Shown here: positions 25,879 to 32,668 of the stretch, piece by piece
Layout of the letters: each line of letters starts with the position of its first letter
How positions within the stretch are numbered: position 1 is the first letter of the stretch
Source of the DNA: Clostridia bacterium
Lineage (GTDB): Bacteria > Bacillota > Clostridia > CAKSNL01 > HGM11501
Reading direction: 5' to 3'
Assembly: GCA_045545475.1 (NCBI GenBank)
Contig: JAZQAZ010000020.1
Span: 81,618-145,617, forward strand
DNA: 64,000 bases
Notes under the pieces: generated by a model
The model's database searches: none
Told to the model about the DNA's origin: nothing
What the model saw: only the letters and a program-made list of their open reading frames with translations
Translations under genes and position numbers: made by a program

Positions 25879-27348
25879 ATGATGAGGAAAATTGGCTTTG
25901 ACAACGAAAAATACATAAAGATGCAGTCTGAACACATCGGAAAGCGTGTTGAGGAGTTCGGCGACAAGCTTTACTTGGAGCTTGGCGGTAAGCTTTTTGA
26001 TGACTATCACGCATCCCGAGTGCTTCCCGGTTTTCAGCCTGACAGTAAAATGAAGATGCTTATGCACTTATCGGACAAGCTTGAAATCGTCATCGTTATA
26101 AGTGCCATCGACATTGTGAAAAACAAGGTGAGAAGCGACTATAACATAACCTATGACCTTGATACAATCCGCCTTATTGAAGCATTCAAAGGCCTCGGTC
26201 TTATGGTGGGAAGCGTTGTTATAACTCAGTATAGCTCTCAGGCAGCGGCAGACGTTTTTAAGAAAAGGCTTGAAAATATGGGAATGAAGGTATTTCTTCA
26301 CTATCCCATTGAAGGTTACCCATCAAATGTGGAACTGATTGTAAGTGACGAAGGCTACGGCAAAAACGATTATATCGAAACCGAGCGGCCCATCGTTGTC
26401 GTAACCGCACCGGGTCCCGGAAGCGGAAAAATGGCAACCTGCTTATCTCAGCTCTATCACGAAAACAAGAGGGGAGTGAAGGCGGGCTACGCCAAGTTTG
26501 AAACCTTCCCCATATGGAACCTTCCCTTAAAGCATCACGTAAATCTGGCGTATGAAGCTGCAACGGTGGACTTAAATGACGTCAACATGATTGACCCGTT
26601 CCATCTTGAAGCATACGGTGAAACAGCCGTAAATTATAACAGAGACATTGAAATTTTCCCTGTGCTTAATGCTATGTTTGAAAAGATAATGGGGACGAGC
26701 CCTTATAAGTCACCTACGGATATGGGCGTTAATATGGCGGGAAATTGCATAATCGACGACGAGGTTGTCCGTCAGGCATCAAAGGAAGAAATTGTAAGAA
26801 GATACTACCAGGTATTAAAAGATAAAACCAACGGAAAATGCGACATTGACGTGATAAGGAAAATGGAGCTTATCATGAAGCAGGCAGAGGTAAGTACCCT
26901 TGACCGTAAGGTTGCAGAGGCGGCACTTAAAAAAGCGGAAACTGCTAAGGGCCCCGTGTGTGCAATCCAGCTTCCCGACGGCAAGATAGTAACGGGAAAA
27001 ACCTCCTCGCTTCTTGGTGCATCCAGTGCGGCACTCCTTAATGCACTTAAGGAAATAACGGGAATCGAGGATGATGTTCATCTTATATCACCGGAGGTTA
27101 TTGAGCCTCTTCAGAACCTTAAAATAAATCATCTGGGAAGCAAAAACCCGAGAATACATATGGATGAAACATTGGTTGCTCTTTCAATCTGTGCGGCAAG
27201 TGATCCTTTAGCGAAAAAGGCACTCGAAGGCATAAGTGAGCTTAAGGGTGCGGAAGCACACTCAACCGTAATTTTATCACAGGTAGATGAAAATATGTTC
27301 AAAAAGCTTGGCATAAATTTAACATGCGAAGCAACATATAATAAATAA
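25879..27348 (+). CDS. Conserved P-loop protein of unknown function (DUF1846/UPF0371-like)
   Basis: KIGFDNEKY, LYLELGGKLFDDYHASRVLPGF, VVTAPGPGSGKMATCLSQLYHE, YAKFETFPIWNLPLKH. Confidence 0.88.
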   Translation: MMRKIGFDNEKYIKMQSEHIGKRVEEFGDKLYLELGGKLFDDYHASRVLPGFQPDSKMKMLMHLSDKLEIVIVISAIDIVKNKVRSDYNITYDLDTIRLIEAFKGLGLMVGSVVITQYSSQAAADVFKKRLENMGMKVFLHYPIEGYPSNVELIVSDEGYGKNDYIETERPIVVVTAPGPGSGKMATCLSQLYHENKRGVKAGYAKFETFPIWNLPLKHHVNLAYEAATVDLNDVNMIDPFHLEAYGETAVNYNRDIEIFPVLNAMFEKIMGTSPYKSPTDMGVNMAGNCIIDDEVVRQASKEEIVRRYYQVLKDKTNGKCDIDVIRKMELIMKQAEVSTLDRKVAEAALKKAETAKGPVCAIQLPDGKIVTGKTSSLLGASSAALLNALKEITGIEDDVHLISPEVIEPLQNLKINHLGSKNPRIHMDETLVALSICAASDPLAKKALEGISELKGAEAHSTVILSQVDENMFKKLGINLTCEATYNK

Positions 27349-27354
27349 TTCTGT

Positions 27355-27388
27355 GGCAGCTGTAAACTTATGTTTACAGCTGCCTTTT
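27355..27388 (+). terminator. Intrinsic terminator insulating the recombinase locus
   Basis: GGCAGCTGTAAAC-TTAT-GTTTACAGCTGCC-TTTT. Confidence 0.88.
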
Positions 27389-27397
27389 ATTTTGCGC

Positions 27398-27426
27398 TTG
27401 CAATTCTTTACAAAATATGTAATAAT
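27398..27426 (+). promoter_or_regulatory. Probable promoter of the recombinase gene
   Basis: TTGCAA - 17 nt - AATAAT with extended TG. Confidence 0.5.
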
Positions 27427-27481
27427 AAATCCGGATGCCGGACAGAATAATACAGCCTTAATAAAAATAAGGAGGTTTATT

Positions 27482-28312
27482 ATGGATTTTTTATCTGAAT
27501 TCAGAGAAAGGCTTGTAAATGATGAGAAGGCAAAACTTACTGTGGAAAAATATGTAAGAGACTGCAGGGCGTTTTTAGCATGGGTTTCGGAAAGCGGGAG
27601 AACGCTGGATAAAGAGGCGGTGCTTTGCTATAAGGAGCTTATTTCAAAGAAACACAAAACTGCCGGAGCGAATTCTATACTGTCATCTCTGAATGCATAT
27701 TTTTCATATATAGGGAGAGATGAGCTTAAGGTAAAAATATTAAAGAGACAAATGACTACCTTCAGAAACGAAGAGAAAGAACTTACGAGAGACGAATATG
27801 TAAGGCTGCTTAATGCCGCAAAGGAGCGTAAAAACAGAAAGCTTTATTATATTATGATGACTGTATGCCGCACAGGGATAAGAATTTCGGAGCTTTCTTA
27901 TATTACGGTGGAAGCGGCAAGAAAAAAGGAGGCGGTTATAGGAAATAAGGGGAAGATAAGAATTATCCTGCTTCCGGAAAAGCTTTGCAGAGAGCTTCTT
28001 TGTTATGCTTCTGAAGAAAAAATAAAAAGCGGCCCCCTGTTTGTAACAAAAAACGGGAATCCGCTTGACCGATCAAATATATGGAAAATGATGAAATCTC
28101 TTTGCGAAAGTGCGAATGTGGAAAGGGAAAAGGTTTTTCCGCATAATTTAAGGCATCTTTTTGCGGTAACCTTTTACAGTGTCCATAAAGATATTGTGCA
28201 TCTGGCAGATATTTTAGGACATTCTACGGTTTCCACTACAAGAATTTATACACTGGAAAGCAGCGGGGCACATAGAAAACAGATGGAACAACTAACAGGT
28301 CTTTTGATTTAA
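27482..28312 (+). CDS. Tyrosine site-specific recombinase (probable DNA invertase), 276 aa
   Basis: AAGGAGG RBS before ATG 27482. Complete catalytic set: TGIRISE (R), GNKGK (K), FPHNLRH (HxxR), ILGHS (H), TTRIY (Y). N-terminal SAM-like region (TVEKYVRD); no arm-binding domain is evident. Confidence 0.93.
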   Translation: MDFLSEFRERLVNDEKAKLTVEKYVRDCRAFLAWVSESGRTLDKEAVLCYKELISKKHKTAGANSILSSLNAYFSYIGRDELKVKILKRQMTTFRNEEKELTRDEYVRLLNAAKERKNRKLYYIMMTVCRTGIRISELSYITVEAARKKEAVIGNKGKIRIILLPEKLCRELLCYASEEKIKSGPLFVTKNGNPLDRSNIWKMMKSLCESANVEREKVFPHNLRHLFAVTFYSVHKDIVHLADILGHSTVSTTRIYTLESSGAHRKQMEQLTGLLI

Positions 28313-28321
28313 AAATAAAAA

Positions 28322-28347
28322 TACCACATAATGCCGATTATGTGGTA
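28322..28347. repeat. Left recombination site (inverted repeat IRL)
   Basis: TACCACATAA-TGCCGA-TTATGTGGTA: palindromic 10-bp arms around an asymmetric 6-bp core, 9 nt after the recombinase stop. Confidence 0.92.
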
Positions 28348-28367
28348 AAAAGAATTATTACATAAAG

Positions 28368-28396
28368 ATTATAACATCAGGGAAGCGGTTTGTCAA
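28368..28396 (-). promoter_or_regulatory. Perfect-consensus sigma-A promoter inside the invertible segment
   Basis: Minus strand TTGACA (28396-28391) - AACCGCTTCCCTGATGT (17 nt, extended TG) - TATAAT (28373-28368). No minus-strand gene lies immediately downstream in this orientation. Confidence 0.88.
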
Positions 28397-28450
28397 TAGT
28401 TTTTTATCAATGGAAAAATAAAACTTTGCAAAAATCAGACATAATGAAGC

Positions 28451-28487
28451 GACCGATGAGGCAGAATTTTACATCGGTCTTTTTTTT
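28451..28487 (+). terminator. Unidirectional intrinsic terminator inside the invertible segment
   Basis: GACCGATG-13nt-CATCGGTC-TTTTTTTT; no A-run on the left side. Confidence 0.8.
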
Positions 28488-28550
28488 GCGCACATTTTTT
28501 GGGAAAAATTTCTTTTTATAAAATCCGTATGGCAGATGAGAAGGAGAGAT

Positions 28551-28576
28551 TACCACATAATCGGCATTATGTGGTA
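28551..28576. repeat. Right recombination site (inverted repeat IRR)
   Basis: TACCACATAA-TCGGCA-TTATGTGGTA, the exact reverse complement of 28322-28347 (27 bp with one flanking base). Confidence 0.92.
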
Positions 28577-28612
28577 GAAAATTATGAGTGGTTTTTTGAA
28601 AGGAAGGATTTT

Positions 28613-31600
28613 ATGAAAAAGGAGTTTTTGCACATTTTCAGCTTCGTTATGATTGCAATTTTCACATTCTCTTGTATCGGGGCTGTAAGTGCGGAAGAAA
28701 CCTTCGATATTCCCGTAATTGAGGAAGTATCGGAGGAGGAGCTTGCAGAGGTTCTCCCGGAAGAGGCAGACGTGGAGATGATGGAGGAAGAAACGGAAAT
28801 CGCTAAGGAAGAAGCATATTTTGAAATACGTGACGGAAAAGGAAATCATGTATGGTTTTTTGCTGATTTGAAGGAGGCACTTTCCTCAGATAAATTACAA
28901 AACGGCTATACACTTTTGATGCTGAAAGACTACACTTGGGATTATACTCTGGCAGATGTATCCAAGGGCGAAATCAGCGGAATAGATATGCCGGGAAGTA
29001 AAACCTTCACATGGGACGGCGACGGTCATACCATTACCGACAAATTTGACAGAAGCAAGTATACGAGAATGACTCAAAAAGACGGTGTATGGACTACGGA
29101 GTTGGGAGGCCATGATGACAGAGCTTCCTACAATCTTGGTAGTGCAAAAGTAACTGCGAAAAACATAACATTTTCGGGAAATCCGCAAAATACGATTAAT
29201 AAACAGGGACATACAAATGGCTGTTTTAATATCGGTAACGGTCAGCTTACATTGAAGGATGTTAAATTTATAAACTATTTCGGATGGAACGGCAGCGTTT
29301 GTTGGATGCAGGGAACAGGCAAGCTGGTTATGGTTGAAAATGTAACTGCCGAAAACTGTTCAGTGCAATACCACGGTCTTATAGGGATAAATAAAGGAAC
29401 TGCTGAAATAAGCGGATTCACTATGAAAAACTGTAAAGGAACTGCTGCTATCGGTGTAGGTACAGTTGCTTCCGAGGCAAGCCTTAACATAGAAAACAGC
29501 ACTATAACAAATTGTTCAACCGGAATACTTGTAGGAGCTTCTGGTGAGTCTGGTAATCAGGGTGTTGCTAATATTGGAGACAATGTGACTATATCCGGTT
29601 GTTCATATGGTATATCTGTTCATACTGGTGCTACAGTCAATGTGACAGGCTTAAACGTTAATATTAACAGAAATACCGAAAGTGGTATAGTTCTTTACAA
29701 CAAAAAGGAAGCTGAAATTGGCTCAACATTAAATGCAACTGGTGGAATGAATATAACAGAAAACCAGAACGCCGGTATTGATATTGCTGAAAACTCAATA
29801 GTTATATTAAATGGCAATGTCAATGTTACAGAAAATACAAATGCTGATATCAGAATGGAAGTAGCTGACGCACTTGAGGTTGGCGAAGGCTTTACTGGAA
29901 CGGCAGGAGTTAGTGTTGTTTCAAACGATATCTGGTTCGGACATCTGGCAGAAGGGGTAGAAACACTTAATGGAACAATATACGAGGGAATTGATCCCAA
30001 CGGACATAAAGGTGCTGTATATGAAAGCCTGATTGGTTCGGGAACGGTAACCCATAACGGAAAAACATATTCTCTTAAAAAGCCTGTAACAAGAGACCTT
30101 GACGATAATGCTCTTGTAATTGGCTACAAAATGTATAAAAAAACAGGCTCCGATGCGGCGGGATACAAGAGAGTCGGAGCGGATGCTGCCATAGGTACAA
30201 GTATGCTCAGCGGTGGAGAAATTTATCTTCTTTCGGATATAACTTTGGCAGGAGATATCAAGTGCGATAAGGATAGCTCTACTATTGACGACCACTTTGA
30301 CTTTACCGGAAGCACAGCTGTTGCAAATATATACGGAAATGGTCACACAATAAGCATTCATGATGATTATACAAAGGGGCATTTTTTCGCAGTTTACCAG
30401 GATGCGACCATGAATTTCCACGACGTTATTTATAACGGAAAAGGAAGGACGACTTTTGCCTATATACACTGCTCGGAAGACCCTAAGGGTGGCGGTGCAA
30501 TAAGTGCAGACAATGTTATATATTATAATGGTAAGCATACTACCTATGCCGGCGGTATTTATAACTCAGGAGAAGCCTATGCCGGTACAATAAATGTAAA
30601 AGACTGTAAGTTTATAGCATGCAAAGGTGCAAACGGCGGTGCATTATATTCTACAGGACTCGGCGTGCTCAATGTATCTGATACAGACTTTATAGATTGT
30701 GCGGCTACAAGTAACGGAGGTGCAGTTTATCTCACCAATAATCATACAATGACTATGTCTGGAGAAATCAATGCTACAGGCAATAAGCGTGGAAGCAAGG
30801 AAAACAATGTGTACCTTTCAAGCGGAGCGAAAATAAACATAGCAGGAAACATAACAGGTGAAATAGGTCTTACTATGGCACAGTCAGGTGCAACCTTCGG
30901 AACTGTTGCAGATACCAATATCACAGGTCTTGATTGCTTCTATGCAGATGGTGCAGAGATAAGATATTATACAGCAATCGGCACCGAACCTGTCATTGAA
31001 AAGGTTAAAGGTACCTTGTTCCCGGAAACTGTGGGAACAGGTGAACTTAACGGTGAGGTTGTTATCGATATGCAGGATGTTGCATCAAGAAAAGAGGGAA
31101 GAGAAAAGGATGCAGTTTTGCACTGGCCCTGGATTGTAGTAAAAGAAGACGAAACCAGATACGGATATGTAAGCCTTAACTCGGCGTATTCAAACCTTGC
31201 GGCAACTTCATTCATATATGCTCAGAAGGACATAACAATTCAGCATTTGTGGGATAAAGCTATAACAACTGAAACAACAAGCGAGGAAAGAAAAGAAATC
31301 TATGCACACGTAGAATTTCCTCTTCCGGGTTCTGGAGATAGGCTTAACCATATAAATACGGGAGCAAATGTAAACATCGACGGAAACGGACACGTGATAA
31401 CGGTAGATAAATCTGATAGTAACTATATGTTTGTTATATACGGCAATAACAAGAGCTTGCAACTTAAAAACTTTATTTATAACGCCGATAAGCCTATGGC
31501 ACATATACATAAAGACCAGGCAAACGGAACAGAAGCGATTATCATAAATAACAGTTATTTCAACAGTCCGAACAGAAATGTTATAGGTGCATTTAAGGGA

Positions 31601-32446
31601 GGAACGGTCACTGTCAATGACAGCACAGTGATTGGAACTTTCGATATAGGATCAGGAGCTAAGCTTATACTTTCTGATACGGCAGTTTCAAAACCGAGCG
31701 GAAAGAGTGTGGTTCTTACCGGTGTTGCACCTGTTGAAGCAAGCGGCGAAACAGCGGCAGTTCCTGCGGTAATTACAAAAGTAACGGTAAAGGGTGATAC
31801 GACGATTTCAGCAGGTAATGGCCTTTATGCAAATAATAAGTATGTCGAAGTTATAATAGACGAAAGCTTTACCGGTTCAATTGAGGTAAATGAGGCGAAC
31901 GGCTGTATAGATAATGTTAAAGCAGGCGAAGGCTTTACTTCCTTAGAGTCTGTAAAGAGCATTACTAAAGCAGGTTCAAACGGCGAAACATTTGCATATT
32001 ATGACGAAGCAAATGAAAAGTTTGCGTGGACTATGGCACCTGAGCTTACACGTACGACAGATTCGGGTAAGTATAGTGACGGGTACGGAACAATAAGATT
32101 TCTGACAACATTTAAAACTGTTGACTCTGCTGCCGTTGCAAGTTATGGAACCTATGCGGTGGGAGAAAGCAGCTTTGTTGAGAATGCAGAGTGGGAAGAA
32201 ACAGAGTTCATAAAATTTGACAAGACACCGGAAGCTGATAAGGTATATTATGTTGATGTTATAAAAATTCCCGCGGAGCATTTTGATACAAAAATTAAGG
32301 CACTCAGCTTTGTAAAGATTAAAGGAATAAAAACCCCCATTTATTACGATTTCAATTTGGCAAGTGTAAATAAAAATGACACAGAAACAGGCGAGGGAAC
32401 ACTGAAGAACTTAGGCAAGCCAACATATGCCGAAGCAGAAGCATGA
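28613..32446 (+). CDS. Large secreted/surface protein, ~1277 aa, predicted beta-helix (pectate-lyase-like/Pmp-like) repeats; possible adhesin
   Basis: GAAAGGAAGG RBS before ATG 28613. Signal peptide MKKEFLH..GAVSA, Glu-rich linker, three D/Y-G-x-GH-x-I modules (DGDGHTI, YGNGHTI, DGNGHVI), GGAI/GGIY/GGALY/GGAVY motifs, Asn/Gly/Thr-rich strands. Confidence 0.8.
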   Translation: MKKEFLHIFSFVMIAIFTFSCIGAVSAEETFDIPVIEEVSEEELAEVLPEEADVEMMEEETEIAKEEAYFEIRDGKGNHVWFFADLKEALSSDKLQNGYTLLMLKDYTWDYTLADVSKGEISGIDMPGSKTFTWDGDGHTITDKFDRSKYTRMTQKDGVWTTELGGHDDRASYNLGSAKVTAKNITFSGNPQNTINKQGHTNGCFNIGNGQLTLKDVKFINYFGWNGSVCWMQGTGKLVMVENVTAENCSVQYHGLIGINKGTAEISGFTMKNCKGTAAIGVGTVASEASLNIENSTITNCSTGILVGASGESGNQGVANIGDNVTISGCSYGISVHTGATVNVTGLNVNINRNTESGIVLYNKKEAEIGSTLNATGGMNITENQNAGIDIAENSIVILNGNVNVTENTNADIRMEVADALEVGEGFTGTAGVSVVSNDIWFGHLAEGVETLNGTIYEGIDPNGHKGAVYESLIGSGTVTHNGKTYSLKKPVTRDLDDNALVIGYKMYKKTGSDAAGYKRVGADAAIGTSMLSGGEIYLLSDITLAGDIKCDKDSSTIDDHFDFTGSTAVANIYGNGHTISIHDDYTKGHFFAVYQDATMNFHDVIYNGKGRTTFAYIHCSEDPKGGGAISADNVIYYNGKHTTYAGGIYNSGEAYAGTINVKDCKFIACKGANGGALYSTGLGVLNVSDTDFIDCAATSNGGAVYLTNNHTMTMSGEINATGNKRGSKENNVYLSSGAKINIAGNITGEIGLTMAQSGATFGTVADTNITGLDCFYADGAEIRYYTAIGTEPVIEKVKGTLFPETVGTGELNGEVVIDMQDVASRKEGREKDAVLHWPWIVVKEDETRYGYVSLNSAYSNLAATSFIYAQKDITIQHLWDKAITTETTSEERKEIYAHVEFPLPGSGDRLNHINTGANVNIDGNGHVITVDKSDSNYMFVIYGNNKSLQLKNFIYNADKPMAHIHKDQANGTEAIIINNSYFNSPNRNVIGAFKGGTVTVNDSTVIGTFDIGSGAKLILSDTAVSKPSGKSVVLTGVAPVEASGETAAVPAVITKVTVKGDTTISAGNGLYANNKYVEVIIDESFTGSIEVNEANGCIDNVKAGEGFTSLESVKSITKAGSNGETFAYYDEANEKFAWTMAPELTRTTDSGKYSDGYGTIRFLTTFKTVDSAAVASYGTYAVGESSFVENAEWEETEFIKFDKTPEADKVYYVDVIKIPAEHFDTKIKALSFVKIKGIKTPIYYDFNLASVNKNDTETGEGTLKNLGKPTYAEAEA

Positions 32447-32455
32447 GGAGGGATA

Positions 32456-32668
32456 ATGATGAACGATAAAATGAATATAACGCAAGAAAATCCCTTTTCC
32501 GAGAACGAGAAAGTAAACAAGGAAAAAAAGAAAAAGGTATATGAAAGCCCCGAAATTACGGTGATAGAAATCGAAACAAAGGATGTCATAAACGCCAGCA
32601 CTTTAATCGGATTCGATGCAGGTGAAAACCTTCTGGGTTCCGGTCAGATAGAGTTTGACTTGAAATAA
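32456..32668 (+). CDS. Small protein with a YxxP leader-like motif
   Basis: GAGGAGG RBS overlapping the upstream stop; KKVYESPEITVIEIETKDVINAS motif. The start could be 32456 or 32459. Confidence 0.75.
   Translation: MMNDKMNITQENPFSENEKVNKEKKKKVYESPEITVIEIETKDVINASTLIGFDAGENLLGSGQIEFDLK

Follow-up and report, generated by a model that had tools for sequence, protein, structure and literature searches.

Parts of the locus analysed here recall several described recombination systems. As in Escherichia coli fimS, an invertible promoter lies directly 3′ of a tyrosine recombinase gene, and as in XerCD/dif and XerA the recombination sites carry a CATAA-6nt-TTATG core, which the dif consensus resembles. 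Recombination at cer and psi is controlled by accessory sequences, the accessible accounts of Hin/Fis likewise describe an accessory element controlling recombination, and those of fimS name IHF and Lrp, whose accessory sites are located inside the element; to our knowledge, neither IHF nor Fis is expected in Clostridia. Termination can also depend on orientation: the accessible passages on fimE report orientation-dependent termination of the recombinase mRNA (PMC2784873, PMC5386303), and those on C. difficile cwpV (Emerson et al. 2009, PMC2784873) describe a ~200-bp inversion before a surface gene, similar to the present one, with an intrinsic terminator at the repeat junction in the OFF state. 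Inverton group 139 with invertase group 35, as presented in the available text of Jin et al. 2025 (PMC11892184), comprises Clostridia invertons with an adjacent tyrosine recombinase, as found here. The working parts of these Clostridia switches are not described in the accessible literature that was searched.

An invertible promoter between dif-like sites

The window, a 64,000-nucleotide stretch of a Clostridia bacterium contig, contains two 27-nt perfect inverted repeats, site L (28322-28348) and site R (28550-28576), with 201 nt between them. Each repeat is a dif-like palindrome of the form ACCACATAA-6nt-TTATGTGGT, and the two spacers (TGCCGA at 28332-28337 in site L and TCGGCA in site R) are mutually inverted; the repeat pattern has two matches in the window against 0.02 expected, and a search at up to two mismatches gave no further copy in the genome. 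The invertible interior (28349-28549), OFF in the assembled state, holds a minus-strand promoter with an extended –10 aimed at site L (28368-28396; TTGACA-17-TG-TATAAT), whose hexamers at 28396-28391 and 28373-28368 match the consensus at 12 of 12 positions. This anatomy of inverted recombination sites flanking a promoter is of the fimS type, whereas the absence of a promoter inside the invertible segment, which characterizes the cwpV type, does not apply. The promoter occupies the same position class in the family loci as in the window, and an Rfam scan of 27300-28700 gave nothing near a gathering score.

The adjacent plus-strand gene (27482-28312) encodes a 276-aa Xer-like tyrosine recombinase with intact R134, H221-R224, H247 and Y256 motifs, a Pfam match to Phage_integrase, archaeal XerA and XerD as its nearest solved structures, and no second close copy in the genome. 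It fell below every NCBIfam cut-off, including those of the XerA, XerC, XerD and XerS equivalogs (best 133 bits against 220), and is not FimB or FimE, since models NF007370 and NF007371 gave 33.7 and 23.9 bits against a cut-off of ~221. Upstream, the strong predicted intrinsic terminator of a DUF1846 gene (27355-27394, plus strand; fold z –6.9) would insulate the recombinase gene, and is followed by a candidate weak recombinase promoter (27398-27426, plus strand; TTGCAA-17-AATAAT with TG) whose 9/12 consensus match is at chance level for such matches. The recombinase leader includes a small GC-rich hairpin (27429-27443) that is terminator-like on the minus strand. Where the recombinase mRNA crosses site L, a U-tract follows in 1/63 and 2/63 loci in the two states, and site L therefore does not end this mRNA.

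Relatives were compared in two sets. The first comprised 217 sequences plus the window, of which 150 had a site pair, 134 lay beside a recombinase gene and 131 were without N or short flanks; removal of near-copies left 90 loci, 63 of them with a confident promoter call. The second set followed the same rules and started from 88 loci (28 given and 60 from the upper part of the match list), yielding 65 with a site pair, 52 new and non-redundant, and 45 confident, for a combined 142 loci and 108 with a confident promoter. The recombinase was present in 72 of 301 class genomes sampled. Spacers across the 142 loci are highly variable and palindromic in none (0/142), with T as the first base in 130 and A as the last in 127.

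Evidence of inversion comes from a relative and from sequencing runs. In locus L001, whose recombinase shares 97% amino acid identity, the interior is reversed and the flanks are unchanged. Contigs of metagenome run X1 break exactly at the repeats (27665-28348, 28322-28576 and 28550 onward), the second spanning 255 nt from repeat to repeat; since 31-letter words would otherwise span the 27-nt repeat, these breaks point to the presence of both orientations, and X1 may hold two strains instead of one switching strain. Runs X3 and X5 are continuous through the repeats in the assembled orientation. With its sites, consensus promoter, Xer-like recombinase, reversed relative and X1 breaks, the switch is real, and both orientations occur in nature. 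Assemblies across the 108 family loci are OFF in 77 and ON in 31, which fits the population bias towards OFF proposed in the initial annotation of this DNA, but fits selection against costly surface proteins equally well.

Several loci depart from the simple two-site arrangement. Extra site copies with the same spacer occur in eleven loci (L002, L018, L033, L037, L063, L066, L203, L231, L244, L280 and L289), mostly 32–34 bp from the neighbouring site and once 53 bp, and three or four sites are present in 15/52 second-set loci; extra-copy loci are possibly multi-state switches. One genome (G008) has at least eight recombinase copies, and distinct spacers could block cross-recombination between copies in such a genome. 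The switch in a Rikenellaceae (Bacteroidota) assembly (L049) closely resembles the one in Bengtsoniella (L035), as a result of transfer or mis-binning. Among the viral contigs searched, palindrome plus site gave 0 matches and the site alone one locus; a viral-collection contig (L219) has one site pair, 230 bp apart.

Site L and the OFF transcript

On the OFF transcript, site L folds into an 11-bp hairpin with a 4-nt loop, directly followed by UUUUUAUUUUU (28311-28321, minus strand), which is the stable short-loop hairpin and U-tract of an intrinsic terminator. A first terminator scan of the window (loop limit 3–8 nt) listed it at 28347-28322, its fold stands out from shuffles (z –3.6), and the RNA, predicted to end near 28314, would stop just short of the recombinase stop codon. 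In ON, the transcript has the same hairpin at site R, but with AGAAAATT afterwards instead of a U-tract, and is therefore predicted to pass. Under a scoring rule for intrinsic terminators modelled on that of de Hoon et al. (PMC1187862; lambda, but not the coefficients, taken from the paper; ViennaRNA at 25 °C), the window scores +4.4 for site L in OFF and –0.3 for site R in ON, and across the 108 family loci the rule passes 77 for L/OFF versus 15 for R/ON, with 31/108 site L junctions not scoring as terminators. At least six U at positions 2–10 past the arm were present for L/OFF in 50/90 first-set and 39/52 second-set loci, versus 10/90 and 1/52 for R/ON. Control counts were 3/90 and 3/52 for A after site R and 5/90 and 0/52 for U at positions 13–21, and the U signal past site L was at background level beyond position 11. 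Hairpin strength showed no difference between site L and site R (–10.7 versus –10.1, p = 0.36), so the asymmetry resides in the tail; promoter score and site L terminator score were not significantly correlated (rho 0.16, p = 0.10).

The A-tract beside site L could instead be a DNA-level part of the site (a recombinase contact or a bend) or A-rich post-stop sequence, and no terminator tail. The site lies within 12 nt of the stop codon in most loci, which partly confounds the two anchors, and where an extra site copy is present, the tract adjoins the outermost copy, which fits either role. Against this reading, at stop-to-site gaps of 13–19 nt the tract tracks the site in 8/10 loci and the stop codon in 2/10, and site R serves the same recombinase and is without the tract on either strand. 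At gaps of at least 20 nt, six U occur at the active site in just 8/28 loci, as a reading without a terminator would allow, but among 15 loci with such gaps and a site L lacking U, 8 have another minus-strand terminator before the gene, where 1.25 would be expected. Of 11 such upstream terminators, most are site copies with their own tract and four are unrelated to the site (L021, L026, L032 and L041), filling the same interval by other means, and we consider a tract with no part in termination very doubtful. Judged from these comparisons, selection appears to act to stop the OFF RNA ahead of the recombinase gene.

The initial annotation had transcription from the promoter pass site L, enter the recombinase gene from its 3′ end and lower its expression by antisense feedback. 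However, site L and the ten bases beyond it are terminator-like on that strand, and because the predicted OFF transcript meets a terminator there that is conserved in the family, antisense feedback is contradicted at the level of prediction; a promoter aimed at its own recombinase gene does not imply such feedback. Intrinsic terminators leak, and the OFF RNA may still overlap the recombinase 3′ UTR by ~48 nt and read through to some extent. The annotated distance of ~15 nt between transcript start and recombinase site is present, with the predicted start near 28361 lying 13–15 nt from a site in both states; bound recombinase had also been suggested as a roadblock. The polymerase footprint reaches to about +20, and polymerase and recombinase could plausibly overlap here, where the –10 to arm distance of 21 belongs to the shortest class (median 35). 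Distances of 26 or less are found in 13/108 loci, a minority, and a start-to-site distance that is equal in both states cannot itself bias direction. Should the site indeed act as a terminator too, recombination and tight one-way output would come from a single element of 24 bp, which would be of use in building compact switches for Gram-positive hosts.

The central palindrome

The interior also contains a hairpin-forming palindrome, GACCGATG-13nt-CATCGGTC (28451-28479; –10.4 kcal/mol), followed on the plus strand by T8 (28480-28487), which had been annotated as a one-way terminator that would stop read-through from the recombinase promoter in OFF. Hairpin and T8 are present as described, the opposite strand is indeed without a U-tract, and the terminator rule gives +2.5 in OFF and –0.8 in ON. 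The 13-nt loop exceeds the limit of the first scan, in whose listing the hairpin is absent, and the plus-strand fold is moderately above shuffles (z –1.9, 6/200). The polarity seen in the window does not extend to 42 palindromes of the same class, of which 10 pass the rule in OFF and 16 in ON, 20 score in at least one direction and 6 in both, and U-tails with at least six U of nine are evenly divided (9/42 versus 9/42). T8 is the most T-rich tail of the class and a family extreme, with 8 U on the OFF side in 1/42, and L001 has a mismatch on the OFF strand in place of the stem pair adjoining the T-run (–8.2 versus –10.4). Whole-interior scans of the 108 loci at four cut-offs returned OFF and ON terminators in ratios of 37/38, 29/16, 37/31 and 53/63; the cut-off of at least six U gave an OFF bias (29 versus 16, p = 0.04). 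Plain p-values for the family sets overstate significance in general, because kin loci are not independent. Strong separate OFF-only terminators lie near the distal site in seven loci (L046, L047, L063, L064, L066, L068 and L073), so flip-out terminators do exist in the family. At the window locus a flip-out terminator is plausible, and T8 may give a weak OFF-direction terminator in this lineage, but it is not a family design, and one-way termination is improbable as the main role of the palindrome.

Spacing and conservation point to a DNA element. An inverted repeat lies 50–100 bp upstream of the –35 in 42/63 loci versus 6.2 expected, for an interval chosen after earlier inspection, and palindromes of the AGACCRAT class, 29–34 bp in length, occur in 18/90 first-set loci, in 23/45 new loci searched with a predefined pattern, and in 47/142 with a widened one. 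The palindrome of the window has its centre at 98.5 bp from site R and at 130.5 bp from site L, and the two distances fit the family grid of ~10.5 bp. Site-to-site distances have this period (R 0.37, reached by 1/2000 jittered sets, with 85/90 loci in range; R 0.62 for the 52 second-set loci), and palindrome-to-distal-site distances fall near 78, 89, 99, 110, 120 and 130 (R 0.85, n = 42; second set, R = 0.90 at 10–10.5 bp). Promoter-to-site distance is likewise phased (R 0.78), and some palindrome phasing could therefore be a by-product; a pure by-product is made less likely by the parts themselves, whose phasing is tighter (R 0.85 and 0.74) than that of the total (R 0.60) and whose residuals are not anti-correlated (rho 0.11). 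The recombinase tree yielded 21 disjoint nearest pairs, and of their 16 differences of at least 4 bp in palindrome-to-distal-site distance, 15 come to within 2 bp of some multiple of 10.5, where 40–50% would be expected by chance. Also conserved in both palindrome halves are non-pairing outer motifs, a CA and an A-tract. The helical register is that of recombination accessory sites of the cer/psi or Hin enhancer type.

The arms nevertheless covary (position +4 is symmetric in 46/47 versus 54% expected, with at least nine changes on a weakly resolved tree), which suggests base-pairing or template-switch correction and suits pairing better than plain protein recognition. The palindrome could thus be an orientation-independent RNA hairpin, acting as a weak two-way terminator, pause or 3′ stabiliser that equalises recombinase levels, with phasing arising from loop-length selection. 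Besides the strict symmetric covariation, this would account for G·U wobbles split 8 versus 9 between strands, for terminator-like calls that are balanced in the two directions (37 versus 38, with 1 each in shuffles), for the six palindromes scoring both ways, and for other clades having different arm sequences in a similar place. However, median terminator scores are negative in both directions, and the loops are mostly 11–22 nt, whereas ~70% of B. subtilis terminator loops are 4 ± 1 nt according to the accessible part of PMC1187862. Template switching, in the accounts available, can also generate arm symmetry, and loop-length selection is at odds with the tighter phasing of the parts and the behaviour of their residuals. 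We regard a two-way RNA hairpin as unlikely, and one that equalises recombinase levels, with phasing from its loop, as rather more so.

The initial annotation joined central hairpin and antisense into a double lock, in which the hairpin stops read-through, the promoter lowers recombinase in OFF and the population is biased towards OFF. Terminators are known to leak, the promoter is a perfect consensus and a ~48-nt 3′ UTR overlap would remain; the opposed OFF and ON scores of hairpin plus T8 in the window, the 77/108 OFF assemblies and the seven loci with OFF-only terminators near the distal end are also in its favour. A precedent exists in fimE, within the accessible passages of PMC2784873. 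Even so, site L lies in the transcript path and outscores the central hairpin, the L/R tail asymmetry is family-wide and the polarity of the central hairpin is not conserved, which makes a double lock decidedly improbable. We lean instead, with reserve, towards the palindrome (28451-28479, on neither strand in particular) being a DNA accessory site, putatively protein-bound.

Against such a site, the full palindrome motif occurs once in the genome, indicating no host regulon, and a search for a cognate accessory gene upstream gave no cluster above 4/66 loci. TetR was rejected as the binder, being found in only 10/27 palindrome-class loci and having no homologue in the 95% complete genome. A putative partner could be the recombinase, an architectural factor of the host, or a protein that recognises the hairpin once extruded. 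Should the palindrome prove to be an accessory site, it would serve as direct bait for the factor tuning phase variation in bacteria that lack IHF and Fis; it would then be a Gram-positive counterpart of the Fis enhancer or of the IHF/Lrp sites, possibly tying switching rate to a physiological signal.

Targets, mechanism and known systems

The plus-strand target gene (28613-32446) encodes a 1277-aa protein with a signal-peptide-like N-terminal segment, and its ribosome-binding site AAGGAAGGA (28600-28608, plus strand), read directly from the sequence, lies outside the invertible segment. The protein gave no Pfam, NCBIfam or PDB sequence match; its top Atlas matches are unnamed clusters, named leads score below 0.9, and beta-helix/adhesin leads are weak. 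Directly 3′ is a 70-aa ORF (32456-32668, plus strand), probably co-transcribed with the target gene, with a KKVYESPEITVIEIETKDVI stretch that we take to resemble small leader-type peptides. By motif reading, a helicase-like gene follows site R in nine loci (L010, L046, L047, L056, L063, L066, L068, L073 and L243), and most loci with a strong extra OFF-only terminator belong to this group, which suggests that helicase-like targets need tighter silencing. A TetR-family-like gene, likewise by motif, is the first after the switch in 20/97 loci with downstream sequence (e.g. L002, L004 and L008), where the switch would control a regulator. Such switches are common in gut Clostridia, driving surface proteins, TetR regulators and helicase-like genes.

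On balance, we find it somewhat probable that the locus combines a fimS-like flip, a terminator at site L and a phased palindrome acting as a DNA element. The adjacent Xer-like recombinase would flip the promoter at the two dif-like sites. In ON, transcription from the promoter would continue past site R, where no U-tract follows, and reach the gene for the secreted protein. In OFF, it is predicted to yield an RNA of ~48 nt ending at site L, since the palindromic site would fold into the hairpin and the U-tract comes from the outer flank, which does not invert, an arrangement whose conservation is described above; termination there would shield the recombinase gene from antisense. The palindrome would serve mainly as a double-stranded DNA element, helically phased with the promoter and with both sites; its most likely ligand is a putative accessory or architectural protein that helps to close the 229-bp recombination loop. 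In this lineage T8 may add a secondary lock by weakly terminating read-through from the recombinase gene in OFF. We propose only tentatively that this widespread Clostridia invertase family uses a site that doubles as OFF terminator and carries a phased, self-symmetric element for a putative protein partner.

The switch probably belongs to inverton group 139, an assignment made by host, recombinase and size and not by repeat motif: like the members of groups 139 and 35, it has a Clostridia host, an adjacent tyrosine recombinase and a similar size. In the available text (PMC11892184), the repeat centres of the group 139 examples are 231 and 241 bp apart, spacing classes also found in the present family, and one member lies outside Clostridia, as does L049 here. 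The accessible passages on this group mention no dif-like anatomy, site terminator or phasing and name terminators as future work; the group 139 motif listing might already include the palindrome. Our literature search, which covered few subscription papers, found neither a site acting as terminator nor a phased palindrome described for the family. Judged by its sequence, the switch is not a FimB/FimE, Xer or cwpV-type member. It differs from fimS in having one recombinase, dif-like palindromic sites and intrinsic instead of Rho-dependent signals, and from XerCD/dif in having two inverted sites 229 bp apart with variable spacers that serve promoter inversion and not dimer resolution. In cwpV, according to the accessible descriptions, no promoter lies inside the segment, the terminator stops an upstream promoter and RecV is encoded remotely, whereas here the promoter itself flips and the site terminator would act on RNA started at that same promoter. 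Termination at a repeat junction is already known from cwpV, and, relative to the sources accessible to us, the switch adds two testable features, the predicted site terminator for the flipped promoter and the phased palindrome.
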